A DNA stretch of 64,000 nt from a virus (taxonomy: Duplodnaviria > Caudoviricetes). The stretch is from IMG/VR virus record IMGVR_UViG_2802429733_000002, positions 1 through 64,000 of that record; one strand, written 5' to 3'. The notes below the pieces were generated by a model, which saw only the letters and a list, made by a program, of their open reading frames with translations, did not search any database and was not told the DNA's origin. The translations under genes were made by a program, and so were the position numbers. Each line of letters begins with the position of its first letter. Within the stretch, counting starts at the first letter, position 1. Positions 738 through 18,073 of the stretch are shown piece after piece.

Positions 738-3204
738 CGCCTCGACCACGGAGTGGGCCGAGACGCCCTCGGGCTTCTCTACCGATCGCACCGTCGAGCA
801 TCGGCGGTTCGACTTCGTGCAATACCTCCGCGACCATGCTCGCCGCAGAGACAAGTGCGACGCCAACCCGGCCTACAAAGCCGCTCATCTCATCGCTGCA
901 GCGGGGGGGCACGTCTTCCCGTGCGGGCCGAACAAGCGCCCACTGATTCGGGAATGGCCGAAAGAAGCGACCGACGATTTCGGTCGAGTCGAGACTTGGT
1001 GGAGCCAGTATCCTCAAGCGCTCGTCGGGATCGCTTGCGGCAAGTCCGGGCTGGTCGTGCTCGACGGCGATCGCCACAACGGCCCGGACGGAGTTGCGGC
1101 ACTCACCAGCCTCCTGGGGGGTGATCTCGTCCCGACCGGCGCTCCGATCGTCGAGACGCCGAGCGGAGGCATCCATGCGTTTTTCCGGCAACCCGAGGGC
1201 GAACCGATCCGCAACTCCGCGAGCCTCTTGGCGCCGGCTGTCGATGTCAGGGCAGATGGCGGCTACGTCGTCGGTTGCGGCTCGGTGCTCCCGAACGGCC
1301 GTGCTTACTGCCCGATGGAGGGCGCGCCGGACCTCGTCGAGGCGTTCGCTAACGACTTGATCCCGGTCCTGCCCAGTTACATCGCGGAGCGGCTTCGCGC
1401 CCCGAAGTCCGACCACGCCGAGCGCCCGGCGCCGCCGCGCGATCCTCGCGGATCGTCGGATGAGCCGCGGCCCTCATCCCCGCCCGGCGCCCGCGAGGTG
1501 GCCTATGCGCGCCGCGCCTTGGACGGGAACGTCCGCGAGCTTTCCAGCGCTGGGAGGGGCGGCCGGAACCAGGCTCTCAACGCGATTGCATTTCGCACGG
1601 GCAGGATGGTCGCGGCCGGCTGGATCGACCGCAGCACGGTCGAGGCCGCGATTGAGGAGGCTGCCCATGCTTGCGGGCTCACCCGCGACGATGGCATTCG
1701 GCAGGTTCGCAAGACGATCACGTCGGGCATCGAGGCCGGCATCCAGAACCCAGCCGATCCGCTGCGAGACGATGGGCAGGGGGCCGAGCGCGAGCCGTTG
1801 AACTTCCGCGGCACGCGGGATCGGGAGCCGGCCCGTGAGGCTCGCCGGAGCGAGGACGGGACGATCTACGACGGCGAGACCGGCGAGGTGCTGCATGAGG
1901 CGGGGCCGGCGCCTGCCGGCCGGGAATTGCCAGAGCATCTGACGCGCCCGGCCGGGCTGCTGGGCGAGATCGTCGACTGGATCACGGCTTCAGCGCGGCA
2001 ACCGAACCGCGCGCTCTCGCTCGCCGCGGCCGTCACTGTTCTCGGCACCGTGATCGGCCGGCGCGTGGCCGGTCCAACCGATGCTGGCGTGCACCTCTAT
2101 GTCGCCATGCTGGCGCCGAGCGCGGGCGGGAAGGATCATCCGATGAAGCGGGCGCAGGCACTCGTCCGCGAGGTGGGTGAGAGCCTTGTCGGGCCGAGCG
2201 GGTTCACGTCCATGGTCGCAATCTCGCGGCATGTGAGCGAGTTTCCGCTGGCCCTGTCCGTCGCCGACGAGCTGGGCAACACGATCAGCCGCATCGCCGG
2301 CCCACGGGCGGGGAATTGGGAGCGCGGGATCACCAAAATCCTGCGCGAGATTTGGGGATCGTCCTTCGAGGTGATCGCGGGCGAGCAGCGGGCGGCGGGA
2401 CGCGACCCCGACATCCGCTGGCCGAGCCTGTCTATTCTCGGCGCGTCGAACCCGAACGAGTTCTTCGACGCCTTGGGATCGGCCGAGGTGTCGAACGGGT
2501 TCCTAAATCGCATCCTGCTTCTGGCGACTTCGAGGAAGTCGCCGAAGGTCGAGCCCGTCGCGGATCGGCACGAGATTCCGGACGCGATCCGTTTCGCGCT
2601 CGCTCGACTCTTCGCCTCCTGTCGAGGCGACCTCGACGAGGATGTCACCGAGATCATCGGAACGACCGCAATCAAGCGTTATGCCGGCGACCCCGACCTC
2701 CGGGACGCTCACGGCAAGATCAGGATCGGATGGGTGGACGACGGCATCCGAGACGCCTGGCTCGCCCTCGACACGGAGGCGTCCGACCGCATGGAGGCGG
2801 ACGGCAACGAGCTATGGGGCCGGGTCGCCGAGATGGCCGTCCGGTTGAGCACGATCCATGCCGTCGGCCGCGCCGGCCTGAGCGCCAAGGTGACGGCGGA
2901 GGATTGGGCCTGGGGGCGCGACCTCGCCCGCTGGTCCGCGGAGACAATGTCCCGAGAGGCCCGATATCGCATTGCCGACACCTTGCCCCAAGGGAACCTT
3001 AAGCTCATCGTACGGCACCTCGCCGAGGCGGGCGGAAGCCTCACGGGAACGGGGCTTGGCAAGAAGCTTGACGGCCGCCTGCGCCAAGTGGAGCTCAAAG
3101 ACGCGCTCGCGTCGCTAATCGAGGCAGGCACGATCGAGGTCATCAAGACGCAGAGCCCGAAGGGCGGACCTCCGGCGGTCACCTACGTCCTTTGCCGGGA
3201 CTGA
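730..3204 (+). CDS. Bifunctional primase/polymerase (Prim-Pol) with PriCT-like and DUF3987-like helicase region
   Basis: ATG at 730; motifs VFPCGPNKRP, LVVLDGDRH, ETPSGGIHAFF, DVRADGGYVV, GRNQALNAIAF; P-loop-like APSAGGKD and VADELG; C-terminal wHTH-like end. Confidence 0.85.
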   Translation: MSSASTTEWAETPSGFSTDRTVEHRRFDFVQYLRDHARRRDKCDANPAYKAAHLIAAAGGHVFPCGPNKRPLIREWPKEATDDFGRVETWWSQYPQALVGIACGKSGLVVLDGDRHNGPDGVAALTSLLGGDLVPTGAPIVETPSGGIHAFFRQPEGEPIRNSASLLAPAVDVRADGGYVVGCGSVLPNGRAYCPMEGAPDLVEAFANDLIPVLPSYIAERLRAPKSDHAERPAPPRDPRGSSDEPRPSSPPGAREVAYARRALDGNVRELSSAGRGGRNQALNAIAFRTGRMVAAGWIDRSTVEAAIEEAAHACGLTRDDGIRQVRKTITSGIEAGIQNPADPLRDDGQGAEREPLNFRGTRDREPAREARRSEDGTIYDGETGEVLHEAGPAPAGRELPEHLTRPAGLLGEIVDWITASARQPNRALSLAAAVTVLGTVIGRRVAGPTDAGVHLYVAMLAPSAGGKDHPMKRAQALVREVGESLVGPSGFTSMVAISRHVSEFPLALSVADELGNTISRIAGPRAGNWERGITKILREIWGSSFEVIAGEQRAAGRDPDIRWPSLSILGASNPNEFFDALGSAEVSNGFLNRILLLATSRKSPKVEPVADRHEIPDAIRFALARLFASCRGDLDEDVTEIIGTTAIKRYAGDPDLRDAHGKIRIGWVDDGIRDAWLALDTEASDRMEADGNELWGRVAEMAVRLSTIHAVGRAGLSAKVTAEDWAWGRDLARWSAETMSREARYRIADTLPQGNLKLIVRHLAEAGGSLTGTGLGKKLDGRLRQVELKDALASLIEAGTIEVIKTQSPKGGPPAVTYVLCRD

Positions 3205-3228
3205 CGAATCCGACATCGCCGGCAACAT

Positions 3229-3259
3229 GCGCCTCGGCCCACCGCCGGGGCGCTTTTTT
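3229..3259 (+). terminator. Rho-independent terminator after primase
   Basis: gcgcctcggc-ccacc-gccggggcgc stem followed by T6. Confidence 0.7.
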
Positions 3260-3380
3260 GGCCTCCCATCGGTCGCCTTGCCCCCCATCGTGGGCAGGCA
3301 AAGAGCTGGCATCCCAGCTACAGCTTTTACGGAAATGGAAGCTCCCGCCCTCACCCCGATCGCTCTCGAAGCAGGGGGGG

Positions 3381-3653
3381 GGTTAGACCGGGAGGTTAGG
3401 GAGGGTTAGGCCGGGTTAGACCGGTCCATCGCTGTATCCGCCAATGACGATCGGGAGTGGTTAGCCCGGTTACACCGGTAGCTGGGCCGGTGTCTCATCC
3501 TGTCTAACTACAATATCTAAATATATGATATATATATGTATTTTCATAAATAGAGGGTTAGACCGGTTAGAGCGGAGGCATTTCCGGAAAAGAGAACAGA
3601 AGGGGATCATTGCCCCTCTATAAAGATATGCTTCCGTGATAACCGGCCTAACC
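3381..3653. repeat. Putative replication origin: GGTTAG iterons plus AT-rich unwinding element
   Basis: GGTTAG at 3381, 3394, 3404, 3414, 3459, 3556, 3565; GGTTAC at 3468; inverted CTAAC/TAACC at 3504, 3640, 3648; AT-rich tract ~3512-3552; non-coding, directly downstream of the primase. Confidence 0.7.
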
Positions 3654-3949
3654 CCTTCGGCGGCCGAGGCACGAGCGCTCGATACGGACTGGTCGGCCTT
3701 GGACAGACCTGCCGGAGGGAGGGAGGCACCCCTAGCTATGGGAAGGCTAGGGCCGTTTCAGAGTCTCGCCGCACCTCGCCGATTTGATCGGCCCACGTCA
3801 CCGGCAAGCGTTTCAAATTAACAGTTCAGCAATAAAAAAATCGCTCTCCCCTCTGTGATCCCTCTCTTCGGTCACGGCGCGATCCGTGTTTATATCGCTT
3901 TGGTCGCGCAGATACTCGCTACGACATTATGTCGTGCCAGGGGATTGCA

Positions 3950-4150
3950 ATGCTCTCATCAAATACCTTTCGCATCATCCCTGATCGTGCGGCCTATCCT
4001 TTGAACGAAGCCTCTGTCTTGCTTTCGATCAGCCGCGCCAACTTGTACCGGCTCGCGAAGGACGGCCGCATCAGGTTCGTGAAGATCGGCCATCGGACGG
4101 TCGTTCCGGCAAGCGAGATCGACCGCCTTGCGCAGGGCCGCGCCGCGTGA
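3950..4150 (+). CDS. Second HTH excisionase-family protein
   Basis: AYPLNEASVLLSISRANLYRLAKDGRIRFVKIGHRTVVPASEIDRL; paralogous to 1..240. Alternative start at 3929. Confidence 0.8.
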   Translation: MLSSNTFRIIPDRAAYPLNEASVLLSISRANLYRLAKDGRIRFVKIGHRTVVPASEIDRLAQGRAA

Positions 4151-4178
4151 GGCGAGCCCGCCAGCACGAGAAGCCGCC

Positions 4179-4445
4179 ATGATCACGACCGTCCATCTTG
4201 ATGCCGCCCCGACCAGCCGGAATGCGCTGCCCGCCGAACTGGCGCGTGCGATGCTGCTCGCCGTGAAGCCGCTCCCGGAGTGGGCTGCTGAGGAGCGCCG
4301 CGAGCCGCCCGATGTCATTCACTGGATCGCGGCGCTCCTGATCCTCGCCGAAAATGCCCGCCTGGACGAGGTCGAGGCGCGGGGCCTGTTCGACCGCCTT
4401 GGCCTGGATCAGGTCGAGGCCGTGCTTGCGAGGACGTTCCAGTGA
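4179..4445 (+). CDS. Hypothetical protein
   Basis: ATG 4179; stop overlaps the GTG of the terS-like gene. Confidence 0.55.
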   Translation: MITTVHLDAAPTSRNALPAELARAMLLAVKPLPEWAAEERREPPDVIHWIAALLILAENARLDEVEARGLFDRLGLDQVEAVLARTFQ

Positions 4446-4933
4446 CCGCGACCAAGCACCCCGGCGGGCGCCCCTCCGGCTACAGCCCCGAGCGCGTCGA
4501 GCCGTTCCTCAACCTGATCGCCGAAGCGAAATCGACGGTCGAGGCCGCGAAGGCCATCGGCGTCGAACCGCGGACAATCTTCCGGTGGCTGGAAACTCAT
4601 GACGAGTTCCGACAGCAATACGCGCGAGCAAAGGAGGCAGCCGCAGACCACCTTGTAGAGGAGGTGCTTGCAATCGTCGATGACGGCCGGAACGATTTCA
4701 TCGAGGGAAAAGGCGGCCCGATCTTCAACGCGGAGGCTGTTGCCCGCTCTCGTCTTCGTTTTGAGGCGCGCAAGTGGCTCGCAGGCAAGTTGCGGCCGAA
4801 AAAGTACGGCGAAAAACTCGACGTAGATCATGGTGTGCAGCCTGAGAGCTCGCTCGCTGTGTTCATAAAATCGATCTCAGGCTCGTCAATCAAACCGGTC
4901 GAAAAGGCCGGACGCGAGGAGGAACATTCATGA
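4442..4933 (+). CDS. terS: Terminase small subunit-like protein (P22/Sf6-type)
   Basis: GRPSGYSPE N-terminus, HTH, QYARAKEAAADHLVEEVLAIVDD, RSRLRFEARKWLAGKLRPKKYGEK. Confidence 0.8.
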   Translation: MTATKHPGGRPSGYSPERVEPFLNLIAEAKSTVEAAKAIGVEPRTIFRWLETHDEFRQQYARAKEAAADHLVEEVLAIVDDGRNDFIEGKGGPIFNAEAVARSRLRFEARKWLAGKLRPKKYGEKLDVDHGVQPESSLAVFIKSISGSSIKPVEKAGREEEHS

Positions 4934-5112
4934 CCGTGTCCAGCGAAACGTCGCGCGCCACCCCGAAGCTCACCCTCGTCGAGGGTGGGCTCGACCAGAA
5001 TGCCCCGCCAGCCCGGCCGGCTCCCGTCCCTTCGCCGAGGGCTCCCGAGCCACCTCGGCACGTCAAGCGGCCGTTGGCAGGCCGCCCTGACGATCAACCG
5101 CCCGCTGCCTGA
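4930..5112 (+). CDS. Small Pro-rich hypothetical protein
   Basis: ATGA overlap with terS stop; 60 aa. Confidence 0.45.
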   Translation: MTVSSETSRATPKLTLVEGGLDQNAPPARPAPVPSPRAPEPPRHVKRPLAGRPDDQPPAA

Positions 5113-5139
5113 TCCCACACCTGATCGAGAGAACCCTCA

Positions 5140-6216
5140 ATGTCTTGGCGCCTTCACTCCGACCTCCGCACGAACCGCCTGGCCGACTTGTTCGAGCCCG
5201 GACACCTGCACTTTCTCGTCGGCTCGCCCGGCGCACCGGCGAGCGAGATCGCGGCCGACCTCGCCGTGGCGCTCGCTGCCGGTGCGCCCGGCAGCGGCCT
5301 TGGTCCGGACAGGTTCGGCAAACGCTCCGCCCTGGCTGGCTTCTTCGGCGTTCCTGCCGGTGCGTCGGTGCCGGTTGCCGTTGCCGTCGACGGGAGCCGT
5401 GCCGACCAGAACGCGCTCGACATCGAGGCCGCGCGCCTCGCCCGCGGCGTGACCACGCCGCTGCCGCTCGTGATGTCCGCCGCGCGGTTCGACCTCCTTC
5501 CGGAGCTCGCGGGCGGGGGCCTGCGCATCGCGGATGCTGCCGGTCTGCTCGGACGCCGGCCGCGCGTCGCCGTCCTCGATCGCATCCCGCTGGGGGGCGA
5601 TGTCCGGACCCGCGCGGCCGGCGTGTTGCTCCAGCAGCGCGACATCAACCGCGAGACGGCGATCCTCGTCGTGACCGACGAGCCGCCGCCCGGCTTACTC
5701 TCGCATGGCTCGACCGTCCTTGAGGTCGATGCGGAGACTCTGACGCTGGCCCGCTCGCCCACGGGCGAGACGTGGCGGCGCCGGTTCACGACGGTCAGCA
5801 TCGAGACGGGCCACGGCGAGGCGCTGGCACTGCGCCCTGGCCCGGCGGTAGATTACAAGCCCGAGCCGATCGTGGAGCCCGTCGAACCTCCTTCTGCGGC
5901 CGCCGAGGCGCCGTGGGTGCCTGCCATCCGGATTGCCGTCATTCCGCTCGGTCGACCGCTGACGCCCTCTGAGCGAGCGTCATGGGAAGGCTATCGGATC
6001 GTCGACGCAGAATCCCGTGCCGTGCCGACACGCGAAGATGTCGACACCGAGGGTCTGCACGAGATCACGATCGTTCCGACCGATCGCGACCCGCGCCGGG
6101 AGGAGGCGAGCCGGAAGGCCGGTGCGATCACTGCCACTATCCTCGACCGCGGCCTGGCCGACAGCGTCCGCGTCACGATCTCCGACCGGTTCGTCCCTTT
6201 CAGCCTCGCCGCGTGA
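5140..6216 (+). CDS. Hypothetical protein (358 aa)
   Basis: Long ORF with host-like codon usage in the satellite operon; no family recognised. Confidence 0.65.
   Translation: MSWRLHSDLRTNRLADLFEPGHLHFLVGSPGAPASEIAADLAVALAAGAPGSGLGPDRFGKRSALAGFFGVPAGASVPVAVAVDGSRADQNALDIEAARLARGVTTPLPLVMSAARFDLLPELAGGGLRIADAAGLLGRRPRVAVLDRIPLGGDVRTRAAGVLLQQRDINRETAILVVTDEPPPGLLSHGSTVLEVDAETLTLARSPTGETWRRRFTTVSIETGHGEALALRPGPAVDYKPEPIVEPVEPPSAAAEAPWVPAIRIAVIPLGRPLTPSERASWEGYRIVDAESRAVPTREDVDTEGLHEITIVPTDRDPRREEASRKAGAITATILDRGLADSVRVTISDRFVPFSLAA
5901..5940 (+). repeat. Imperfect 40-bp direct repeat, copy 1 (copy 2 at 13346-13385)
   Basis: 35/40 identity by manual alignment. Confidence 0.7.
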
Positions 6217-6257
6217 TCGCGGCGAAGGCCCCCTTTCCTCTCATTCGAGTTCATGTC

Positions 6258-9200
6258 ATGTCCGATGGCTTTTCGGCTTCGCCGCTCGATCAGGTGCTGG
6301 CGGAGTCGCAGACGAAGCTCCGTCAGGCATCCACGGCGCCGGTCGGTCCCGCCTTCCAGTCCGACCAGCCCGAGCCGGCCATGCCCGAGCCCGCGCTGCT
6401 CACGGCCTTCGAGAGCACTGCTGATCGATACGGCATCCCGGTCGATGCGCTGCTCGCGATGGCGCAGAAGGACTCGAACTTCGACCCGCTCGCGCGCTCG
6501 CGCGGGATCGGTCCGAAGTCTCGCGGCATCGTCCGGATCAGCGACGACGATCTGACCCGGACCGGCATCAACCCCTATCAGCCCGAGCAGGCGCTCGGTG
6601 TCGCCGCCCAGAAGATCAAGGGCTACCTCGACAAGGGCATGTCGATGGAGGACGCCATCAAGGCGACCGTCGGCGGACCGAACAAGGAGACCTGGGGGCC
6701 GGAGGTCCAGCAGTACTACGACGACGTGATGGGCCGGGCCGGCAAGCTCGCCGACGCGCTCTATCCCGCGCAGCCCGAGCCGGCTCCCGCGCCTGCGGCC
6801 CCGCCCTCGGACGGCACATGGTATGGCGACATCGGGCGCGCCGTCGATCGCGGCGTCGGCTCCGTCATGAACATGCCGTTCGAGATCGCGTCCGCCATGG
6901 GCAGCGAATGGGCGGAGAAGCAGGCGAAGGGCGTCCGCGACTACAACGAGGAGAGCCGCAAGCGCGACAGTGCCGGGCTCCACGCGTCGCGCGAGGCCTT
7001 CGACAAGGTCGGCGGCCGGATCGGCAAGCGCATGAAGGAGGGCGACCTCGCGGGCGCCACCGGCTGGCTCTCGGCCATCGCCGACAACCCGATGGATGCG
7101 ATCCGCGACTTCGGCGAATCCGTCGCCGCTATCGGCACCGACCCGCGCCTCCTGACGACCACGATCGCCGAGAGCGCGCCGAGCATGCTGGCCGTGGGTG
7201 CTGGCGGCGGCGTGGGCGCCGTCGCGGCCCGAGCGGCGGGCGGCTCGGCCGGAGCGGGCAGTGCGCTCGGCATCTTCCTCTCGTCGTCGGGCATGTCCGC
7301 TTCCTCGATCGCCGAGACGATCAACGGCGACGTGGACAAGATGAAGGGGTCGGACCTGCGCCGGCTCGCCCCGCAGGCGAAGACGCTCGAAGAAGCCAAG
7401 CGGACCGTCAAGCAGAACGCCTTCCTCACCGTCGAGACGCTCGCGGCCGCAGGACTGGCCGGGTCGATCGACCTCATCGGCCGCGGGGCCGAGAAGATGA
7501 TCGCGGGCGGGCTCCGCGAGACCGGCGGCATTCTCCGCACGGCCGCGAAGGGCGCTGCGACCGAGGCGGCGCAGGAGACCGGCCAGTCCGCCCTTGAGGC
7601 CGCCGCTGGCGCACGAGCGCAGGACAGCTACCAGCCCGAGCAGGATAACTGGTCGGGGGTCCTGCGCGAGACCGCGGCCGGAGCGGTGGCGGGTGCCGGC
7701 ATGGGCGCCGGCACGGGCGCCATCTCCGGCGCGCGCGGTCGGAACGATCATTCGAATCCGTTCTCGGCGCTCGACCCAGCAGTGCAGGCGGAAGCCGGGG
7801 ACGGGTACGTGACCGCCGGCACTGTCCCCTCTGCGCCTACTCAAGCCAGCCCCGCGCCCTCCGAACCGGTGATGAAGCCGATCCCGCCGACTTCTCCCGA
7901 GACGGTTGCTCCGGCCTCCGCGCCGGCTGGGCCGCTTGCCCGCGCGCTCGACGTTGGTGCTCCTCAGTTGCGCGAGGTCGCGAAGCCGGCCGGCAGCGTC
8001 GTCGTCGTGACGGATGAGACCGGTCAGCGCGTCGGCCGCATCGTTGGCCAGGACTCTGACGGGATCATGTTCGAAGACGCCGACGGGGTGGTAGAACTCC
8101 TCTCGCCGGACGACATCACGAACGGCATTGTTCAGGTGACGACGCCGGAGGATGCTCCGCGCGTTCCCCAGGCGCCTGCCGCCCCTATCGTCGCGGAATC
8201 CGCAGAACCGGTCCAAGCCCCTGTCGCTGACACGACGGGGCTTGTCGCCATGGGCGGCGGCCTTGCTGGAGCGATCACCGACAGCTTCTACGGCGGCTGG
8301 TTCGACCTGCTCTCGCGGAAGGAGGGGGCGTCCAGCGCTTTTCGGGCCGAGCGCCTGTATCCGGCGACGCGCAGGGCATTCGATGCCGGAGAGATCACGT
8401 CGCCGGCCGACCTCAAGGCGTTTCTGGATCGCTCGGAGAAGGCGCCGGCTGAGAAAGAGGGCGAGACCCGACCGTTCGCGCCCGAGACCGGAGCGCTCGG
8501 CGTACCGCGGGCGGAGATGCCCCAGGTCGCGAGCGAGCACCATGGCGCGCTCGTCAACCACCTCAATGCGAAGGGGATCGCGCACGAGACCACGGAGGTC
8601 GATGCCGGCGCTCTGAAACCGACGCAGGCCGAATACGAGCCCGCGAAGGTGAAGCGCGCGAAGGCCGAGGGAAACGGCGAGCGCTCCGTCATCGTATCGA
8701 ATGACGGCCACATCGTCGACGGCCATCATCAGGCTGTCGCGGCGGCCGAGGAAGACCGGCCGGTCAGGGCGATCGTGCTCGACGCCACGGCCGAGGAGGC
8801 GCTCGAAGCAGTCAAGGCGTTCCCGAGCGTTAGGACGGCTGGCACCTCCGAAGGCAAGGTGCGGGAAGTCGAAAAGACGCTGGCCGAGATGTCGGAGCCC
8901 GAGCTGCGCGAGCGTCTGAAATACGTCGCCGGTCAGGCCAAGGCGAATGGGGGCTGGGGCAAGCGTTGGATCGAGGCCCGCCGCGAGGTGGAGCGCGAGA
9001 TCGGCAGGCGCCAGCGTGGCGCACAGAGCTTCGGCTCGCCTGTAGCGGCGAAGCCAGAGAAGCCGGTCGCCATGAAGGCAGCTTCGTCGAATGCGGCGCA
9101 GGCCGTGGTCGGGAGGTCGTTCGGATCGCCCGAGAAGGCCGAGGCGAGGCTCGCGAAGCTGAACCTCTCTGCCACCCATGAGGTCGTCCAGACGGGCAAG

Positions 9201-12200
9201 GTCCGTTGGGAGATCAAGCCGAGGCAGACGGCGGCCCCAGCGCCAACCGAGAAGCAGGCGCCCGCGCCTGTCGCCGCGCCCGCCGCCAAGCCATCCGCGA
9301 AGGAGAAGGCGGCTGCCGAGCGCGCCCGCATCGACGACTACTTCACGCCGGGCAACATCGTCCCGTCCTATGGCGGCGGTGCCGATCGCGTCGTCTCGTT
9401 CTCGCGCGGCAAGGATGGCGAGATCAGCGTCACTGTCGAGGCCGTCAGGAAGGACGGCGATCGATGGGTCGGCACCGGCGAGCGGCGCACGCACTCGACG
9501 CAGCCGGGTCCGCGCGAGCGCGTGATCGAGCGGGCATCTCCGAAATTCGATCCCGTCGGCGACATGGTGCAGGCGGAGGCCGGGCCGACCGCCGCCGAGC
9601 CCGAGGCGAAGGCGGACCCGTTCGCCGGCAACAAGCTGTTCACGTCCGACGCCGTCGCCAAGGCGCGGGCGCGCATGAAGAACAAGCTCTCGTCGCCGAA
9701 GCCGTCGGTTGCACATGGTGAGCCGGAGGGCATGTCATCGGAAGCCCTGTCCGAGCACCTCACGAGCGGCGAGGATGCCGCTCTGATCGCGAAGCTGATC
9801 AGTGCCGGCCACATCGTGCTCCACGACAACGCCTCCTCCCTGCCGGACGGGATCGGCGCGCCTGACGGCGTACAGGGCGTGACGATGGCGGATGGCACGA
9901 TCCACCTCGTCTCCGGCAACCTGACGCCCGCGACGGCCCGGAGCGTGCTCCTGCATGAGATGTTCCACGCGGGCACCCAGCCTCTGATTGGCGAGCGGCA
10001 GTGGGGAGCGCTGCTCGATCGCGTGCGGCGGGCAACCGATGCGGCCATGGCCCGATCTCGTGCGGGCACGTCGCACGCCTCCGACGCCTTCTGGCGCGAC
10101 GCGGGCGAGCGGGCCGGAGCGGCTGGGACGCCGACCGAGCACCTCGCCGAGGAGGTCGCCGCCTATGCGATCGAGAGCAGGGAGCGCGCGCCCGCTGGCC
10201 TCCGCGAGATGGCGGACAGCCTCGTCGGCCGGGTGAAGGCCTGGGTGCTCCGCACCTTCGGCCACCAGCTCGGCGCCGTGACGCCGAGCCAGCTTCGCGC
10301 TCTCGCGGTCTCCGCCCTGCGATCGTGGCGGGATGCGCCGATCGTCTCCTCAGATGGCGGCACGCGATACTCCGTAGCCGCCACGGTGGAGCTTCAGCCC
10401 GATCGGAAGGGGACGCTTTTCGATCGGGCGCAGCGGCAGGCGTCGTCCTTCCTGACCAACGCCATGGCCGGCAAGCTGACGCCCCTCGCGCTCGTGCCGA
10501 CGCGTCCGCTCTTCATGGAGCTTGCTCGCGACCTGCCATCCGCGCGCAAATATCTCCGCACGAAGGAGGCAATGGACGCGATGCGCAACGACCTCTCCAC
10601 CGAGGTCGCGCCGATCGTCGAGAAATGGGGAACCTTCGCGCTCCGCCACCGTGGAGAGAATCGGGCGCTCGCGGACCTGATGCACGACACGACCATCGCG
10701 CAGCTCGATCCGTCGGAGCCGCCGCGCCTCAAGGCCGGCGATCCGCGCCGCGCGGAATATCTCGCCCTGCGCCAGCGGTTCGAGGCGCTGCCGAAGGCCG
10801 CGCGGGACATCTATACAAAGGCGCGCGACTTCTACGAGGAGCGTGCCGACCAGAGCGAGCGAGAGGTCATCGCGAACATGCGCCGGGCCATCGACGCCGC
10901 CGCGAAGCGCGCCGATCGCGAGCACGCCGCCGAGATGCAGCGGATCAGCGACAAGGGCCTGACCGGCAAGGAGCGCGCCGAGGCCGTTGCCGAAGCCGAT
11001 CGCAAGCGGACCCTGGCGCAGAGCCGCACCCGTCGCATGCGCAACGCACGCCTGAAGCGGCTCCGCGAGCAGTTCGAGAGCAACCGTCTCGCCGGCCCCT
11101 ACTTCCCCCTGGCCCGGTTCGGCCGGTTCTTTGTCACCGTACGCGACGCTGACGGGAAGGTGGTCTCGTTCTCCCGGTTCGAGAGTGTCGGCGAGAGCGA
11201 GGACTTCGCCGCGCAGATGCGCCGGGACAGGGCCAACACCGTCGAGGTCGGCCTGATCGAGGAGAAGACGAGGGCCGAATCCTTCCTCGATCCGAAATTC
11301 GTGGCCGACGTGGATGCGATCCTCGACGCCGGTCATGCCTCGCTCGCGGTGCGCGATCAGGTCTGGCAGCGCTACCTCGAAACGCTGCCGGACCTGTCGA
11401 TGCGCAAGAAGCGCCTCCACCGGAAGAACCGGGCCGGCTATTCGAGCGACGCGCTGCGCGCCTTCGCATCCTCCATGTTCCACTCGGCGCACCAGATTTC
11501 CCGTCTGCGCTATGGGCTGGAGCTGGGCGAGCACCTGGACGAGGCCGGGAGCGAGGTGAAGAGCGCGAAGGACCCGTATCGCTCCGGCGCCGTCTTCGAC
11601 GAGATGAGGCGCGCGCACGACTTCACCATGAATCCGGACATCAAGGGCTGGTCGCATAACGTCACCTCGGCCGTGTTCCTCTGGACGATGTGGGCGAACA
11701 TCTCGTCGGCCTTGGTCAACCTCGATCAGGCGTGGTCGAAGGGTGTGCCGGTGCTCGGCTTCGATGCGGAGACCGGCAATGTCGGAACGAGGCGCGCAGC
11801 AGCCTACATGGCAGCGGCCCTGGTCGATTTCCTCCGCGGCCGGACCTTCGTCGCGAACTCGCCCAGCCTCTCGGCGGACGAGCGGGAGGCGATCGGGAAG
11901 GCCTATGAGAGCGGCGTCATCGACAAGACGCAGGCTCACGACCTTGCCGGCGTCGCCGATCGCGGCGTCCGCTACAATCCCTTCTGGGCGAAGCTGATGA
12001 AGTTCGGCTCGGCGCCTATGCACCAGACCGAGCGCCTCAACCGCGAGATCACCTTCCTCGCCGCCTATCGCCTGGCACGCGATTCCGGGCTGGCGCACGA
12101 TCCGGCCATCGTGAAAGCCGGCGATCTCACCTGGATGACGCATTACGACAACCAGGCCTCGGGCAAGGCTCGGCTCATGCGCGGGAGCACCGGCCGGGCC

Positions 12201-13190
12201 ATCTTCGCCTTGAAGTCCTTCCAGGCGAACGTGCTCTACCGCCTGTTCCGCGATCTGCATCAGGCGACGCAGGACTTGCCGCCCGCCGAGCGCAAGGCGG
12301 CCATCGGTCGGCTGACCGCGACCATCATGCTGTCGCTCCCCATGGCCGGGTTGAAAGGCTTCGCGGGCATCTCGGTCCTGATGTCGATCGCGGGCCTGTT
12401 CATGGGCGCCGCCGGAGACGATCGCGATCCCGAGGAGGCGCTGCGCAAGGCGGTGCTGGAAGCGGCCGGGGACACGCTCATCGGGCAAGCCGCGGGCGGC
12501 ATGCTGATGGACGGCATTCCCGGCTACCTGACCGGCACGAGCCTCTCCGGCCGCGTCGGCATGGGTGATCTCTGGTTCCGCTCGAACAACCGCGACATGA
12601 ATGCGGAGCAGCAGTTCACCTACGTCCTTGAGCAATTGCTGGGCGCGCCCGTCGGCCTCATGCATCAGGTCTGGCAGGGCGGCGCGGACATCGCGAGGGG
12701 CAACGTCACTCGCGGGTTCGAGAAGATGGCGCCGGCTGCCTTGCGCAACCCGGTCAAGGCGGCCCGCTACGCGACGGAGGGCGTCCGCGACAAGAGCGGC
12801 GACACGGTCGTGGAGCGCGTGGCGCCGCAGGACGTGATCAAACAGATGATCGGCTTCACGCCGGCCGAGATCGCGGACCGCCACGAGCGGAACAATTTCC
12901 AGCACAACATGAAGAGCCGGATTCAGGGAGAGCAGGCTGCCCTGAGGCGCGCCGCGGCCGAGGCGCGCCGGGCCGGCGATCCGGACAGGCTCGCGAAGGC
13001 GATGGCCGAGGTCGACGCATTCAACGACCGCCACCCTCGCTATGAGGTCGACCGGCAGAGCATCAGGCGGGCGCAGCGAGCCATGGAGAGCCGGTCCCGG
13101 CGGAAGGAATTCGGCGTCGATCTGCCGACGAGCATAGCGCCGCTCATCCGAGAGAGCACGGCGCCATCGATCTACTCGCGGCGGGAGTAA
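6258..13190 (+). CDS. Large polyvalent protein (2310 aa): SLT-like, ParB-like, zincin HExxH peptidase-like, PLxRFG domain
   Basis: N-terminal ADRYGIPVDALLAMAQKDSNFDP; VIVSNDGHIVDGHH (~8700-8730); LLHEMFH (~9950) with downstream EEVAA; GPYFPLARFG (11106-11123); helical C-terminus typical of phage ejection-type polyvalent proteins. Confidence 0.8.
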   Translation: MSDGFSASPLDQVLAESQTKLRQASTAPVGPAFQSDQPEPAMPEPALLTAFESTADRYGIPVDALLAMAQKDSNFDPLARSRGIGPKSRGIVRISDDDLTRTGINPYQPEQALGVAAQKIKGYLDKGMSMEDAIKATVGGPNKETWGPEVQQYYDDVMGRAGKLADALYPAQPEPAPAPAAPPSDGTWYGDIGRAVDRGVGSVMNMPFEIASAMGSEWAEKQAKGVRDYNEESRKRDSAGLHASREAFDKVGGRIGKRMKEGDLAGATGWLSAIADNPMDAIRDFGESVAAIGTDPRLLTTTIAESAPSMLAVGAGGGVGAVAARAAGGSAGAGSALGIFLSSSGMSASSIAETINGDVDKMKGSDLRRLAPQAKTLEEAKRTVKQNAFLTVETLAAAGLAGSIDLIGRGAEKMIAGGLRETGGILRTAAKGAATEAAQETGQSALEAAAGARAQDSYQPEQDNWSGVLRETAAGAVAGAGMGAGTGAISGARGRNDHSNPFSALDPAVQAEAGDGYVTAGTVPSAPTQASPAPSEPVMKPIPPTSPETVAPASAPAGPLARALDVGAPQLREVAKPAGSVVVVTDETGQRVGRIVGQDSDGIMFEDADGVVELLSPDDITNGIVQVTTPEDAPRVPQAPAAPIVAESAEPVQAPVADTTGLVAMGGGLAGAITDSFYGGWFDLLSRKEGASSAFRAERLYPATRRAFDAGEITSPADLKAFLDRSEKAPAEKEGETRPFAPETGALGVPRAEMPQVASEHHGALVNHLNAKGIAHETTEVDAGALKPTQAEYEPAKVKRAKAEGNGERSVIVSNDGHIVDGHHQAVAAAEEDRPVRAIVLDATAEEALEAVKAFPSVRTAGTSEGKVREVEKTLAEMSEPELRERLKYVAGQAKANGGWGKRWIEARREVEREIGRRQRGAQSFGSPVAAKPEKPVAMKAASSNAAQAVVGRSFGSPEKAEARLAKLNLSATHEVVQTGKVRWEIKPRQTAAPAPTEKQAPAPVAAPAAKPSAKEKAAAERARIDDYFTPGNIVPSYGGGADRVVSFSRGKDGEISVTVEAVRKDGDRWVGTGERRTHSTQPGPRERVIERASPKFDPVGDMVQAEAGPTAAEPEAKADPFAGNKLFTSDAVAKARARMKNKLSSPKPSVAHGEPEGMSSEALSEHLTSGEDAALIAKLISAGHIVLHDNASSLPDGIGAPDGVQGVTMADGTIHLVSGNLTPATARSVLLHEMFHAGTQPLIGERQWGALLDRVRRATDAAMARSRAGTSHASDAFWRDAGERAGAAGTPTEHLAEEVAAYAIESRERAPAGLREMADSLVGRVKAWVLRTFGHQLGAVTPSQLRALAVSALRSWRDAPIVSSDGGTRYSVAATVELQPDRKGTLFDRAQRQASSFLTNAMAGKLTPLALVPTRPLFMELARDLPSARKYLRTKEAMDAMRNDLSTEVAPIVEKWGTFALRHRGENRALADLMHDTTIAQLDPSEPPRLKAGDPRRAEYLALRQRFEALPKAARDIYTKARDFYEERADQSEREVIANMRRAIDAAAKRADREHAAEMQRISDKGLTGKERAEAVAEADRKRTLAQSRTRRMRNARLKRLREQFESNRLAGPYFPLARFGRFFVTVRDADGKVVSFSRFESVGESEDFAAQMRRDRANTVEVGLIEEKTRAESFLDPKFVADVDAILDAGHASLAVRDQVWQRYLETLPDLSMRKKRLHRKNRAGYSSDALRAFASSMFHSAHQISRLRYGLELGEHLDEAGSEVKSAKDPYRSGAVFDEMRRAHDFTMNPDIKGWSHNVTSAVFLWTMWANISSALVNLDQAWSKGVPVLGFDAETGNVGTRRAAAYMAAALVDFLRGRTFVANSPSLSADEREAIGKAYESGVIDKTQAHDLAGVADRGVRYNPFWAKLMKFGSAPMHQTERLNREITFLAAYRLARDSGLAHDPAIVKAGDLTWMTHYDNQASGKARLMRGSTGRAIFALKSFQANVLYRLFRDLHQATQDLPPAERKAAIGRLTATIMLSLPMAGLKGFAGISVLMSIAGLFMGAAGDDRDPEEALRKAVLEAAGDTLIGQAAGGMLMDGIPGYLTGTSLSGRVGMGDLWFRSNNRDMNAEQQFTYVLEQLLGAPVGLMHQVWQGGADIARGNVTRGFEKMAPAALRNPVKAARYATEGVRDKSGDTVVERVAPQDVIKQMIGFTPAEIADRHERNNFQHNMKSRIQGEQAALRRAAAEARRAGDPDRLAKAMAEVDAFNDRHPRYEVDRQSIRRAQRAMESRSRRKEFGVDLPTSIAPLIRESTAPSIYSRRE

Positions 13191-13345
13191 GAGAAGCTGC
13201 CCCGACAGAGATACAGGCCGGCTGATAGGGCGGATGCCTCACGCGGGTACAAGGGCCTCGACACGAACTTGACCGAGCGGCAGGTGAAGCCGAGAACAAG
13301 GACATTCCGACGTTGACGTTGCCGGGCCGCCGGATCATCCGCGCC

Positions 13346-13385
13346 CGCCGAGGCGCCGTGGATGCCTGTCGTCCGGATCGTCGTC
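13346..13385 (+). repeat. Imperfect 40-bp direct repeat, copy 2
   Basis: cgccgaggcgccgtggatgcctgtcgtccggatcgtcgtc vs 5901-5940. Confidence 0.7.
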
Positions 13386-13448
13386 CAATGGCTCTGCCGC
13401 CAGCACCACGGGGCTGGCATGGGGTCGGTACAACTCTCGCGGCCGGCT

Positions 13449-14339
13449 TCAGGATTGGACGCCAGGCAGTTGCCTAAGGAATGCACAGATCGCATTCGGC
13501 CAATCCAAAACCTGATGCCGACGCAGTACAAAGTATTCAGATGGCGTCGGTTTCTCCTCGCGATAGAAAACCGCATTGCAAGCATATATCTGAGTGACGC
13601 TGTTGAGACCATCAGTTTCTTGATCGGCGAATGTTATCGCGGAGAGCCGTGGCCTCGTGCGGTACTGTGACGGTTTGTGAATGACAACGGCGATTCGAGG
13701 AGTGATAGGGCAAATGATGCTCAGGCTCCCCAGATTATAAGAGCCAGGAGCAAGGGTGCTATAGAATCCGTCCCCAAATATAAACTCCCTGTTTGGAGAA
13801 TAAATGATAGCTACCTTGCCAATGTACGGAATATTCCGAGCATGATTTCGCTGAGTGCCTCTTAAGTTCATGGAGATCAAGTTGTTTTTTTCCTTTACTT
13901 TTATCGATCCCCGGAGGTGTTCTGCCGTCGCAACGGCTAGCGCTCGCGTCATTGGGCTCCGAACGGCCAACGAGATGACGCACTCAAGGAGCTGATCTAT
14001 TTGCTCCGATGCCGCTTCGATCGGGATGTAACGATCTCGGAGACCGGCCTCAATGAGAGGAGGCCGGTCTAAACTCTGAAGCCACTCAATAACATGGGGG
14101 AAGGCCGAGTCGGGCCTGTCGAATTCTGGCTCAAATGTGAAATCCCACGGCGTGTCTTCGCCGGGATCATTCCCCAATCGCACACTGTGGCCGCCGCCAA
14201 TCGCAGCGAAGTTAGCTGGATCAGACGATATTACTTCTCCATCCGGCTTCAGCCAATGGACGATACCCTCATCATTCTTCCAGTATCGAGATACGCCCTT
14301 TGGCCACCAATGGTGTTTGGACGCTAACGGATGGGCCAT
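13449..14339 (-). CDS. DUF4238-like protein, candidate anti-phage cargo
   Basis: N-terminal KHHWWPK (HHxxP) and C-terminal CPITPRIAVVI are characteristic of DUF4238; AT-richer than flanks. Confidence 0.65.
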   Translation of the reverse strand: MAHPLASKHHWWPKGVSRYWKNDEGIVHWLKPDGEVISSDPANFAAIGGGHSVRLGNDPGEDTPWDFTFEPEFDRPDSAFPHVIEWLQSLDRPPLIEAGLRDRYIPIEAASEQIDQLLECVISLAVRSPMTRALAVATAEHLRGSIKVKEKNNLISMNLRGTQRNHARNIPYIGKVAIIYSPNREFIFGDGFYSTLAPGSYNLGSLSIICPITPRIAVVIHKPSQYRTRPRLSAITFADQETDGLNSVTQIYACNAVFYREEKPTPSEYFVLRRHQVLDWPNAICAFLRQLPGVQS

Positions 14340-14410
14340 CGAGAAGCTCAAGCGCGGCACATAGTCCGCCAGCATCACTAAGAGTGCCCCGCGCTGCATC
14401 GCCCCGCAAC

Positions 14411-14808
14411 TTAATCGAAGGTCGATATGCGCTTCGCCATCTTGGCGCTCACGCTGCGCAGGGGCGCCGCCGCCTCGGCCGGCGGATATGACCGCAATCT
14501 CGCGCGATATCTCGACGATCCGATCCACGGTCTCGCGCTTGGCGCCGGCCAGCTCGCGCGGCCTCGATCCAGATCGGGATAGCGGTCGGCGCTCTTGATG
14601 CCGATGTCCTCGCCCGTCCGGCGAGCCATCTCGACCGCCACCCAGGTCCAGAGACGAGCGTCTGCTCGATCGTCGCGCACGCGGGCGTCCTGTGCCCGCT
14701 GGCGAGCTTCGACATCGGCCAGATCGTCCACCCGTTCATGAGATCGGTCGCCTCGCGCTGGATGCGCTCCCGGGCCTCGCGGCGGTGGGCGAGCAAGACG
14801 GCGATCAC
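14411..14808 (-). pseudogene. Small frameshifted hypothetical gene
   Basis: Frame 1 MIAVLLAHRREARERIQREATDL joins frame 2 ERVDDLADVEARQRAQ...WVAVEMARR across an apparent 1-nt loss at gatctcatgaacgg (~14735). Confidence 0.45.
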
Positions 14809-15983
14809 GGCTGTCCGCTATCCGGATTGTCCGGTGCTCCAACGATTCCGTCATCGAGCTCTATGGATGGAATGTCGAGCAGGCTGCCGAATTCGACGGG
14901 CTCGCTGAGATATCGAAACCCCCACGGACTTAGGAGGAGCGCGCGCCTTCGAGCCGGTTGCTCGAAACGATGATCCCAGAGATCGTCAAGCTCGATTTGC
15001 TCCAATAGTTGTGCCATCCGGACCTTTGGCAAGGCAACCTCGTGGGGGGAGAATCCAGAATCCAGCATGTAATCAATAAATTCTGACGGCTGTTCTGCGG
15101 TTATGTCCCAAATTACTGAAAATACTTTACCGCCAAGCTGGCCATTGATCGCTTCCTGCCGCAGGAACTCCGGCGACGTTTCCGGACCCGGTGACGAGCT
15201 CGAAATGGAAAATGCGCCGGAGGCAGGATTTGCATGAACAGTCCAGGTCGCAGGAAAATTTTCGCTTAATCGACCGACAATTGTTCGCGATGGATGAAAA
15301 GAGCTTATGGAATTCGATACATATATTCTGAGGACATCGAAAAATCCTATGCCTTTTGTTAAAGCCAGATTCACCTCCTCAAAAGTCAACCTAGTCGCGA
15401 GGCCCCCATTGCGGCGTCGTAAACGCAAGCCATCTTCCCATATGACGTAGTCGGCATGGTAGATACCGTTACGAATATCGTCTCTAAATGCGCCCTCCAG
15501 AATCGATGACAGTTCCGTCATGCCGATTTCGTTCGCAGTTTTTGCAAGATTTCTGAACGTGGCATTTGCGTTAGGGCCGATAATTCTCTGCGGAGCAGTT
15601 CTTACTTTAACAAGATCATGGAACGGCCACAGAAGGTATGGCTTAAGAGTGATGATGCCCATCACATTTTTGATAGTTTCATAGACGCCACCCGCCTCTG
15701 CGAGCTGACAATAGAGAAATAACAAGACGCGAATCTCGGCTTTTGAGCGCGCGCGACCTTGCTCGGCACAAGATGATATCTCTCGGAACACCTCGTGTGC
15801 GGTGATAGTGGTCGACCAACCGGGGTCTTGCATGCCGCGAAATTCGCCGCTGAGCGACGCAGCAAAATCAAGCTCATTAACCTGCTTTGCGCAAGCAAAC
15901 AGATATGCAAGATGTCGTGATAGCTTATTTAGGTATGTCAGCGAAGTCATAGGTAGGTCTCGGTGCGTTAAATTTGACATCAT
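14805..15983 (-). CDS. Hypothetical protein with RxxxxH motif (HEPN-like RNase candidate)
   Basis: AT-rich 392-aa ORF; DDIRNGIYHADY contains RxxxxH in a helical context. Confidence 0.6.
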   Translation of the reverse strand: MMSNLTHRDLPMTSLTYLNKLSRHLAYLFACAKQVNELDFAASLSGEFRGMQDPGWSTTITAHEVFREISSCAEQGRARSKAEIRVLLFLYCQLAEAGGVYETIKNVMGIITLKPYLLWPFHDLVKVRTAPQRIIGPNANATFRNLAKTANEIGMTELSSILEGAFRDDIRNGIYHADYVIWEDGLRLRRRNGGLATRLTFEEVNLALTKGIGFFDVLRIYVSNSISSFHPSRTIVGRLSENFPATWTVHANPASGAFSISSSSPGPETSPEFLRQEAINGQLGGKVFSVIWDITAEQPSEFIDYMLDSGFSPHEVALPKVRMAQLLEQIELDDLWDHRFEQPARRRALLLSPWGFRYLSEPVEFGSLLDIPSIELDDGIVGAPDNPDSGQP

Positions 15984-16151
15984 GCACGGGAATATTTTTT
16001 TAAGATCTACGCCGCCCGGAAAGAAGGCAACGGGAGCGGGTGGATCGGCGCTCCGGTGCGTAGCAACATAATGAGAACGAATGAGACGAGAGTCGAGTCA
16101 GCCGGCCGCGGCGACGCGCGTGCGGCCGGCTGACATGATCTCCCGAGGGGA

Positions 16152-16379
16152 CTAGAACACGCGCGCCCGAGCGGCGAACTCTTCGACATCTTCAAGCGTT
16201 GCTTCGTACATGCGGCTATAACAGCCCAGAACGCCTATGTTGTCGTAATAACCTACGATGGTATATCCCGTGTCGAAATACTTACGAAGATGTGATCGCG
16301 CAGGCGTCTTTTTAAGACGGTAGCCGGCGCGGGCGAGCAAGCGGCGAACTCGATCTTCGCGAATCTTGATAGCAGACAT
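16152..16379 (-). CDS. Small basic hypothetical protein
   Basis: MSAIKIREDRVRRLLARAGYRLKK...; 75 aa from ATG 16379. Confidence 0.5.
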   Translation of the reverse strand: MSAIKIREDRVRRLLARAGYRLKKTPARSHLRKYFDTGYTIVGYYDNIGVLGCYSRMYEATLEDVEEFAARARVF

Positions 16380-16596
16380 GCAACGGTGTCCCTTGGTTGG
16401 GATTATCCACCGTTGCGCTGCGGCGATCAGACTGGCCTGCCTGTGGAATTGGGCAAGAGGTCCGGCGCACGAAGGCGCTGCCAAGGCTGGCATCTTGCGC
16501 GATCTGGATCGCGCGTCAATACCGGCATCCTGCCCTCGCTGCTGAGGGCGCAAAGCGCGTGTCGGCGCCCTAGTTCGATGGGCAGGCGGAGGGCAC

Positions 16597-17385
16597 ATGA
16601 AGGCTGAAATCGTGCCGGCGACATCCAAGCTACTGGATGAACTCGAAACTTGGCTCAGGGCGGAGAACGACGCCTACGAGGCGGCTTGCGAACGCCAAGC
16701 AGAACGCTGCCCAGAAATTGAGATTTTGGAGCGCGGATTCTTCTGCAATTGGAACATCGTCCGGCGGTCCTTCGAGCGCGATCCGCGGAATGTGCACGTT
16801 CTCCTCATGGACGGCGCGGCCATTGGCTTCGTTGACGAAATGGACATCCTAGAGGTCCACCCGAACTTCCGACGCCAAGGCCTCGGAGGGATGCTCGCCG
16901 ACTTTATGATCCGCCGGGCGTTCGACCTGGGCCACAGCGTGGCTGTGATCGAGGTCGCGCCGGCATCTGCCCAGCCTTTCTGGGAGCGCATGGGGTTCAC
17001 AATGGACGTGAACCGTCGGGGCGATGGCGGCGGGATCTACGCTTTCCGCAGGTTCGAGCGCCCCCAAGCTTTGGGAGCAGGGCCGCGCATCCCATACCGG
17101 ATCGCCTTCCATGATCGGTCGCGCGACTGGGACGAGAGCGTTGAGCCGTTTTCGGTTTTCGAGGGCATGGGCGAGCAACAAGCCGATGGCTCGGTTCGGC
17201 TAGCCGAACGGGCCTACTGCTTCGATGCAACCCAACCGACATCCTTTGACTGCGTCGTCCGGGTTGAACTCGCGGGGAGGCTGCTCTTCGAGGACAAGGT
17301 CAAACGACGGGAGGCCCAGGATGTCGGCCTGGAAATCGACCCAGGCAGCATTTGCTATTTCGAGCACCTGACGCCCCAGCATTGA
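16597..17385 (+). CDS. GNAT family N-acetyltransferase
   Basis: Acetyl-CoA motif ILEVHPNFRRQGLG and AQPFWERMGF; extra C-terminal beta-rich domain. Confidence 0.8.
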   Translation: MKAEIVPATSKLLDELETWLRAENDAYEAACERQAERCPEIEILERGFFCNWNIVRRSFERDPRNVHVLLMDGAAIGFVDEMDILEVHPNFRRQGLGGMLADFMIRRAFDLGHSVAVIEVAPASAQPFWERMGFTMDVNRRGDGGGIYAFRRFERPQALGAGPRIPYRIAFHDRSRDWDESVEPFSVFEGMGEQQADGSVRLAERAYCFDATQPTSFDCVVRVELAGRLLFEDKVKRREAQDVGLEIDPGSICYFEHLTPQH

Positions 17386-18004: not shown

Positions 18005-18073
18005 CCGAGCGATCCCGGAGCCCAGCCCGATCGCGCGTCCCACTTTGTCGCAGGAGGCATCATGAGCGCCCAT

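Follow-up and report, generated by a model that had tools for sequence, protein, structure and literature searches.

Why would a mobile element with no capsid genes encode a protein of 2310 aa of the kind that tailed phages eject with their DNA? This question is raised by a 64,000-nt stretch of viral DNA (IMG/VR record IMGVR_UViG_2802429733_000002, positions 1 to 64,000; here called the window), in which an open reading frame (ORF) at 6258–13190 on the plus strand encodes a giant polyvalent, ejection-type protein, recognized from the ORF itself, Pfam and PHROG matches, alignments and a tree. The window begins inside the element, and upstream genome sequence (L001) was used for the integrase and the left attachment site; positions upstream of the window carry a minus sign. 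Our analyses suggest that the giant gene sits in a 20.3-kb integrated phage satellite of the phage-inducible chromosomal island (PICI)/P4 kind, which is capsid-less and has its own small terminase subunit gene (terS) and origin. We give about an even chance to the reading that this is a PICI-like satellite whose packaging operon would supply a minimal ejection protein.

The giant protein and its phage relatives

The reading frame around the giant gene is open from 5982 to 13190, and the gene upstream stops at 6216. The start is the ATG at 6258, as M1 is invariant in alignment A1 and the N-terminus is common to seven homologs. GC content at the three codon positions (0.69/0.52/0.86) has a coding-type pattern in a genome of 68% GC. 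The ORF is intact and is not decaying. Two long ORFs antisense to it, 5991–9716 (1241 aa) and 10350–13034 (894 aa), both on the minus strand, have the wrong codon-position GC (GC3) pattern and were dismissed as artefacts of high GC content. With 6933 of the 20,286 bp, the giant gene makes up over a third of the island, as the initial annotation of this DNA had stated.

That annotation, made from the letters alone, described a multidomain giant ORF with an SLT-like N-terminus, a ParB-like DGHH motif, an HExxH peptidase-like motif and a PLxRFG motif. Each motif is indeed present once in the 2310-aa ORF (DGHH at aa 821, HEMFH at aa 1233, PLARFG at aa 1617). The C-terminal half contains an LPD39 domain (aa 1398–1574; 10449–10979, plus strand; Pfam, 1.2e-48) followed by the PLxRFG C-terminal domain (aa 1586–2304; 11013–13169, plus strand), which was delimited by PHROG, the structural model and homology to PBC5 p23 and LKA5 gp58. 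PHROG 10089 ("DarB-like antirestriction") spans aa 1398–2304 with E = 5e-299, and homologs of the protein are named PLxRFG by NCBI. The PLxRFG domain is almost all helical and has hydrophobic helices at aa 2014–2052. An AlphaFold model of aa 1140–2310 (predicted local distance difference test score, pLDDT, of 74) is nearly all helix after the HExxH helix.

Upstream of this half is an HExxH zincin-like block (aa about 1160–1360; 9735–10337, plus strand), which we defined by invariant motifs and model topology. The HExxH and a downstream EExxAYxxE, including its downstream Glu, are invariant in the homolog alignment, and the AlphaFold model places the HExxH on a helix that follows three strands (strand-strand-strand-helix). 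No Pfam match was obtained for the block, including MPTase-PolyVal, and coiled coils dominated the results of the fold search. The ParB/Srx-like block (aa 741–867; 8478–8858, plus strand) was identified with PHROG 2859, to which no function is assigned (9e-19), and alignment A4, in which six phage homologs all keep LKPTQ and DGHH unchanged. A weak language-model lead (0.84–0.85) connects it to viral ParB_N/ParBc_2 clusters; no Pfam or PDB profile matched it, the Pfam DdrB-ParB model included. Closer to the N-terminus is a Gly/Ala-rich region (aa 276–496; 7083–7745, plus strand; PHROG 2206, 2e-14) that resembles the N-terminal part of N4-like virion RNA polymerases and holds a hydrophobic segment at aa 389–407. 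The SLT-like domain itself (aa 51–140; 6408–6677, plus strand), in which Asp replaces the catalytic Glu, is a marginal match to the SLT hidden Markov model (HMM), scoring 22.2 against a gathering threshold of 21.3 bits only when the N-terminus was scanned alone. PDB sequence searches with the whole giant protein, its N-terminus and a profile of the ParB block returned nothing.

The domain assignments of the initial annotation therefore fared unequally. PLxRFG was borne out, by the motif and by PHROG 10089. For the ParB-like and peptidase-like assignments the invariant motifs stood, but neither a ParB fold nor the HExxH block is recognized by a Pfam or PDB profile; the SLT-like label held by a score just above gathering, but the canonical catalytic Glu is missing. 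As one polypeptide of a mobile element in which SLT-like, ParB-like, HExxH, LPD39 and PLxRFG blocks occur together, the protein has the make-up of a polyvalent protein.

Island-form relatives aside, relatives of the giant protein in the phage collection and IMG/VR are found in temperate podophage genomes of 55–67 kb. These are Lastavirus, Namazuvirus POI1126, Roslyckyvirus Atu_ph08, PBC5 and Hollowayvirus LKA5 and, for part of the protein, Gervaisevirus and Lessievirus. The phage giants are 3000–4800 aa in length and are encoded at the end of the virion module. A tree built from the C-terminal half groups the island forms with a 61-kb phage contig, L034, in a clade of 13 rows (SH-like support 100); L034 is syntenic with the 55–67 kb podophages. 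Identity to the C-terminal LPD39 and PLxRFG half is 26–53% for LKA5, PBC5 and L034 (PBC5 p23 is 38% identical to aa 1390–2306, LKA5 gp58 26% over aa 1615–2260). JC1 gp69 has the ParB-like and HExxH blocks, but no recognizable C-terminal half. The island terS is 40–44% identical to those of Gervaisevirus p2110 and Hollowayvirus LKA5, two phages that also carry giants with blocks in common with the island giant. Judged by these alignments and the tree, the island giant is descended from the phage giants.

The closest phage copy, that of L034, has 4311 aa and consists of the blocks of the island protein plus ~2000 residues with an N6-adenine methylase and a ResIII/SNF2 helicase (the extra modules are Eco57I/N6_Mtase, ResIII/SNF2 and Helicase_C). 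Pfam found no methyltransferase or helicase module in the island giant. By this comparison the island copy is the phage protein minus the modules behind the "DarB-like" label, and identification as a DarB-like antirestriction protein does not fit because the methylase-helicase block is absent from it.

Published work connects these phage proteins to ejection. The F116-group giants (H66 gp60, F116 p60, PBC5 p23, BcepMigl gp69) were joined to T7 gp16, the internal virion protein called D (IVP-D), by profile comparison, with an HMM-HMM E of 8e-19 (PMC4819975, Hardies et al.). H66 gp60 is structural and, like N4 gp50, couples an ejection protein to domains active in the cytoplasm (PMC4819975). JC1 gp69 was detected in CsCl-purified virions by mass spectrometry with 51 unique peptides (PMC9144972). 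For the link to T7 we depend on PMC4819975, because our direct comparison of alignment A3 with T7 gp16 by hhalign was non-significant (probability 0.11). Like T7 IVP-D, the island giant combines in the same protein an SLT-like N-terminus, here with the catalytic residue changed, and a C-terminal portion (aa 1140–2310) modelled as helical. That polyvalent PLxRFG proteins are typical of phages and linked to virions, as the initial annotation stated, agrees with these data: the relatives are virion or ejection proteins of ~60-kb podophages.

The island and its counterparts in other genomes

A 20-bp direct repeat, AAAATTGGTCGGAGTGATAG, encloses the island, with attL at window -2136..-2117 (L001:17864-17883) and attR at 18150–18169, for a span of 20,286 bp. 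The attR copy of AAAATTGGTCGGAGTGATAG overlaps the 3' end of a tRNA-Pro(CGG) gene at 18155–18231 on the minus strand. Between the repeats (-2136..18169), no ORF matched a capsid, portal, TerL, tail or lysis protein in Pfam or PHROG, the giant internal-protein homolog excepted. In the only run found, which is a contig set, probably the source assembly, and is uninformative on excision and expression, there was no attP/attB junction and depth was even.

The giant gene is the last of a co-oriented packaging operon, in the order alpA, orf4128, terS, orf4930, a RecA-like gene and the giant gene, with three of the gene junctions overlapping by 4–23 nt. All of its genes are on the plus strand. The operon opens with an AlpA-type helix-turn-helix (HTH) regulator gene (3929–4150; Pfam HTH_17 6e-10, Phage_AlpA), which precedes an ORF of 105 aa and unknown function (4128–4445) whose end overlaps the start of terS. 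The terS gene (4442–4933) is of Sf6 type (Pfam Sf6_terminase 2e-31; PHROG terS 1e-37) and is followed by an ORF of 60 aa, also of unknown function (4930–5112). Neither of these small ORFs matched Pfam or PHROG.

The RecA-like gene (5140–6216, plus strand), which we call the partner gene, encodes 358 aa and was assigned a RecA/KaiC/DnaB-like fold from its AlphaFold2 model (pLDDT 88.7), alignment A2 and Foldseek matches to KaiC and T7 gp4. It has no match in Pfam, PHROG, PADLOC or the phage databases and is absent from the IMG/VR scan. The family is rare: among 1.84 billion proteins it forms 34 representative clusters, and a search of 400 genomes from the order gave no real match, three other genomes having only weak partial ones (E about 1e-4 to 1e-5). 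In alignment A2 most members have a degenerate Walker A motif, and almost every full-length member finishes with Ala-Ala, an ending that is reminiscent of an ssrA-type degradation tag.

Ahead of the packaging operon are the genes for integration and replication. The P4-type integrase (window -1933..-692; L001:18067-19308) has the Pfam domains Arm-DNA-bind_3, Phage_int_M and Phage_integrase. The first island gene inside the window (1–240, plus strand) encodes an AlpA/excisionase-type regulator (Pfam HTH_17). A small ORF of unknown function (243–737) precedes the PrimPol-helicase replicase, whose longest ORF is 541–3204 on the plus strand (Pfam Prim-Pol 6e-34 and a weak DUF3987; PHROG DNA primase 2e-59) and whose true start is probably after 737. 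A terminator-like hairpin at 3229–3253 (plus strand) closes this replication operon. Just 3' of it, at 3382–3652, nine iterons of GTTAGNCCGG, seven direct and two inverted, flank an AT-rich core at ~3510–3550. There are 24 matches to GTTAGNCCGG in the window against 11.6 expected, nine of them inside 270 bp, and this cluster, by its composition and its place next to the PrimPol-helicase, is probably the island replication origin.

The same layout was found in two Rhodoblastus genomes, as a search for islands with terS and a giant gene proposed in the initial annotation had envisaged. Rhodoblastus acidophilus MO (L003) has, at a tRNA-Met, an integrase, a PrtN-type regulator, a PrimPol-AAA_25 protein, a Terminase_2 terS, the partner gene and a giant of 2118 aa. 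Rhodoblastus sp. SSC7 (L005) has, also at a tRNA-Met, an integrase, AlpA, an AAA_25 helicase, a Terminase_2 terS, the giant gene, the partner gene and a restriction-modification pair. A 17-bp repeat of the tRNA 3' end delimits the SSC7 island, which measures 19.9 kb. Its cargo (L005:19443-22024), an Mrr_cat-type endonuclease and an N6/N4 methylase, is at the distal end, in the same place as the low-GC cargo of the window island. Partner homologs adjoin the giant gene in all three islands (5140–6216; L003:8700-9779; L005:16500-17531). The three islands thus have a layout in common, and two are similar in size (19.9 and 20.3 kb), while the attachment site and terS family differ. As far as gene order can tell, independent decay would not easily produce a shared layout across such differences. 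Further close relatives come from metagenomes, as proteins of 2100–2360 aa on contigs of 17–24 kb.

Several expectations set out in the initial annotation can be addressed with these data. It had called the element a capsid-less satellite, and the att repeats, its own terS and origin and the missing structural genes now describe a discrete satellite-type island. The term "podoviral" applies to the relatives of the giant protein, which come from podophages, but not to the island itself, which is without structural genes. It had also allowed that the gene might occur only in full podoviral prophages and be decaying here; instead, the ORF is intact and the same layout recurs in two other genomes.

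Toward attR the island carries further genes. The low-GC (0.55) cargo at 13449–15983 on the minus strand comprises a DUF4238-like ORF (13449–14528) and an orphan ORF of 392 aa (14805–15983); PADLOC had no match for the island cargo. A GNAT acetyltransferase gene follows at 16597–17385 on the plus strand. Just inside attR, at 17705–17935 (plus strand), is the remnant of an integrase 3' end that is 65% identical to aa 323–399 of the island integrase. A stretch just outside attL (L001:17396-17495; window -2604..-2505) was observed to be 95% identical to this remnant, and a minus-strand HTH ORF lies in the remnant there, at L001 about 17400–17630. The remnants suggest, from sequence similarity, that an older related island was once in tandem at the same tRNA-Pro site and is now mostly deleted.

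Proposed role and alternative explanations

In the role that we propose for the giant protein, terS would direct the helper terminase to satellite DNA. Because the giant gene closes the terS operon, its product would be made when the packaging functions are made. As a helper phage grows in the cell, the giant protein may enter helper procapsids or particles via its conserved C-terminal half, which by PMC4819975 would belong to the IVP-D/T7 gp16 family, and would then be ejected with the satellite DNA and form or complete an entry channel. The ParB-like and zincin-like blocks might act on the incoming DNA or process the protein. We infer both packaging into helper particles and injection. The hydrophobic helices at aa 2014–2052, the helical architecture and the muralytic-type N-terminus are consistent with an ejection role. 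Because the methylase-helicase block has been lost, the island copy seems more likely to be a minimal delivery protein than an anti-restriction weapon. The anti-defence role suggested in the initial annotation is, with the methylase-helicase modules of the phage relatives missing, less likely than DNA delivery, and we found no support for the remodelling of host range that it also mentioned.

A number of observations weigh against this proposal. The catalytic position of the SLT-like domain, located by eye against more distant phage homologs, is Asp (AQKDSNF) in the giant protein and likewise throughout the 13-member clade. In the whole clade, phage contig L034 included, the motif reads (E/Q)(K/H/R)DS..GIIKM, whereas farther phage homologs have the canonical QES..GLMQ, and the muralytic domain may be inactive or altered in this lineage, to judge from the motif. 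The model of aa 1140–2310 had no significant fold match among solved structures; the best Foldseek E-values were 0.011 and 0.064, the latter to the PhiM1 ejectosome and both non-significant, and a wide fold search returned generic helical hairpins only. The Rhodoblastus islands use a Terminase_2 terS and not the Sf6 type; given this difference in terS family, either the giant protein must suit helpers whose packaging enzymes differ, or a type of terS would be only loosely tied to a type of helper. In the SSC7 metagenome-assembled genome (MAG), the giant gene is split by at least four frame changes, either through assembly error or through decay. The element is also rare: a query with the C-terminal half matched nothing at E<=1e-20 in a sample of 400 genomes of the class, and a search of 40 relatives with the whole giant protein was likewise empty at E<=0.001, although its first look was set more strictly and could have passed over matches.

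The helper is a further difficulty. Structural proteins of p2110, Atu_ph08, JC1 and LKA5 had no match in the genome, and no matching phage is resident. The prophage next to the island was considered as an evident helper and rejected: between its TerS and the island terS only an HTH stretch is in common, and none of the podophages compared has a match to its TerL, portal or capsid. It keeps some chance of being a helper on the ground of size, as two copies of the island (~40.6 kb) would be close to a headful of this prophage. One copy amounts to about a third of the headful genomes (~60 kb) of giant-bearing phages. A 16.8-kb satellite has been reported to be packaged as trimers by a 55-kb headful helper (PMC4936722).

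We considered whether the island could instead be a deletion remnant, what is left of an F116/Gervaise-type prophage made defective by losing everything from terS to the giant gene, with the giant ORF a relic that has no current role. In LKA5 the late structural operon begins with terS and ends with the giant gene, and one large deletion could join the two; the island integrase is 29% identical to that of LKA5, and the fragmented giant gene of the SSC7 MAG would be expected of a relic. We nevertheless think this unlikely. The PrimPol-helicase with its iteron origin and the RecA-like partner are without counterpart in the phages compared, no fragments of structural genes are left by Pfam and PHROG, and the compact layout is common to three islands with different attachment sites and terS families, two of them bounded at 19.9 and 20.3 kb. 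The 6.9-kb ORF is moreover intact, with coding-type GC3 and conserved motifs, and the methylase-helicase block has been cleanly removed from it.

Interference with helpers through variants of helper morphogenesis functions is common in satellites (SaPI, P4, PLE), and this habit counts in favour of another explanation, in which the giant protein is a truncated copy of an essential internal protein of the helper that poisons helper particles or blocks superinfecting phages, and does not deliver the island's own DNA. The island copy has neither the phage protein's enzymatic modules nor the catalytic Glu of the SLT domain, as might be the case in a dominant-negative form, and the adjoining cargo looks defence-like. 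The change from Glu to Asp is not specific to satellites, however, as it also occurs in phage L034 and the long forms of the clade, and the C-terminal half keeps all conserved blocks and invariant residues, which is a better fit for a working protein than for a decoy. As the sole function, interference appears improbable to us; the interference and delivery roles are compatible and do not exclude each other. Very improbable indeed is a conjugative explanation, in which an integrative mobilizable element would export its polyvalent protein via a type IV system. Polyvalent proteins do occur on conjugative elements as well (PMC5512222), and the helper phage was not found in the genome. Yet the island has terS and no relaxase, coupling protein or type IV secretion system gene by Pfam and PHROG, the relatives found are all in phage genomes or these islands, and LPD39, the PLxRFG half and the region like N4 virion RNA polymerase indicate phage-type proteins.

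If the satellite does supply an ejection protein, a more specific scheme can be put forward, which we regard as possible but on the doubtful side. In this scheme, ~20-kb satellites of ~60-kb headful podophages would replace the 3000–4800-aa ejection protein of the helper with a stripped-down version of their own, and the resulting particles would carry a satellite-specific entry or pilot protein, whose ParB-like block may ride on the satellite DNA. The anti-restriction modules of the helper would be omitted, which could spoil helper particles.

The adjoining prophage was observed to be complete-looking and of siphovirus type, at window about 18700–56200 (roughly 37.5 kb). Its genes include TerS/TerL (52793–54924), a portal (49088–50491), a protease-capsid fusion (50840–52777), a tape measure (38740–43107), a tail protein of 1697 aa (31235–36328), an amidase, a Thg1-like gene (21450–22334) and a DUF4326 gene. 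It is flanked by tRNA-Pro(TGG) at 18670–18746 and a tRNA-Met/Gln/Pro cluster at 56009–56266, and its ends share 24 of 25 nt.

Comparison with known elements and implications

PICIs are about 10–15 kb in size. The window island is larger, at 20.3 kb, and resembles PICIs (SaPIs, EcCICFT073-type) in its integrase, AlpA-type regulator, primase-replicase with adjacent iteron origin and terS, as well as in the placement of defence-like cargo at one of its ends, in integrating at a tRNA gene and in the absence of genes for capsid, tail or lysis. It carries the PICI-type marker set as used in SatelliteFinder (PMC10085698), plus a clear origin. It differs in that no cpm, ppi or rpp homolog was found: neither the small ORFs nor the RecA-like gene matched these families in Pfam or PHROG, where they are poorly covered. 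PICIs "typically do not" encode phage-like structural genes (PMC10085698), whereas this island encodes a homolog of a phage virion protein. It also differs in residing in a Rhizobiales-type alphaproteobacterium, and its dependence on a helper is putative.

The Pseudomonas AH14b/AH14a pair (PMC4936722) offers another comparison. AH14b is alike in having a P4-like integrase, AlpA and a primase, and in being about one third of the size of its 55-kb headful helper, by which it is packaged as trimers; it also has homologs of a few virion-related genes of the helper. AH14b differs in that it has neither terS nor a giant protein, and its products went undetected in particles (PMC4936722).

As for the protein, the F116-group giants (H66 gp60, F116 p59/p60, LKA5 gp58, PBC5 p23, POI1126 gp30, Atu_ph08 gp21 and the Lastavirus "PLxRFG protein", and partly Lessievirus Bcep22 gp75 and JC1 gp69) are like it in the LPD39 and PLxRFG half, the HExxH, ParB-like and SLT-like blocks and the helical C-terminus. 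The island protein is half their size (2310 against 3000–4800 aa) and is without the methylase, the SNF2 helicase and other enzyme modules. Those giants are encoded in the tail/IVP module, whereas the island giant is encoded near terS on a capsid-less island. P1 DarB is alike only in the "DarB-like" label of PHROG 10089 and in the idea of a large protein packaged in the head; its methyltransferase and helicase modules are absent from the island giant and present in that of L034. The polyvalent proteins of Iyer et al. 2017 (PMC5512222) are alike in bringing together several unrelated domains per polypeptide, including LPD39, zincin-like and ParB-like ones, and as a class are predicted to travel with DNA. 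They differ in that the Pfam MPTase-PolyVal and DdrB-ParB models miss the island giant, and the class was described from phages, prophages and conjugative elements. The word "satellite" never occurs in that paper (PMC5512222), and keyword searches of an open-access collection of papers turned up none in which a satellite has a polyvalent or ejection protein, in keeping with the remark in the initial annotation that this strategy was not recognized as described. On these comparisons of gene content, the island would be a PICI-like satellite with a putative ejection-protein module.

Known satellites hijack their helpers by redirecting packaging, by resizing capsids, or by bringing their own capsids or tail adaptors. 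To our knowledge, no satellite has been described as supplying internal proteins that open the route for DNA into the next cell. If the giant protein is loaded and ejected, satellites can tune the entry step too, and the island copy would mark the minimal part of the 0.5-MDa phage proteins for loading and ejection, namely the SLT-like end, the ParB-like and zincin-like blocks and the PLxRFG half. Replacement of the helper's ejection protein, if true, would make this the first satellite known to control the DNA-ejection step, and not capsid size, packaging or tails. PICI-like satellites would, if our reading is true, also be extended to alphaproteobacteria related to methylotrophs and phototrophs.

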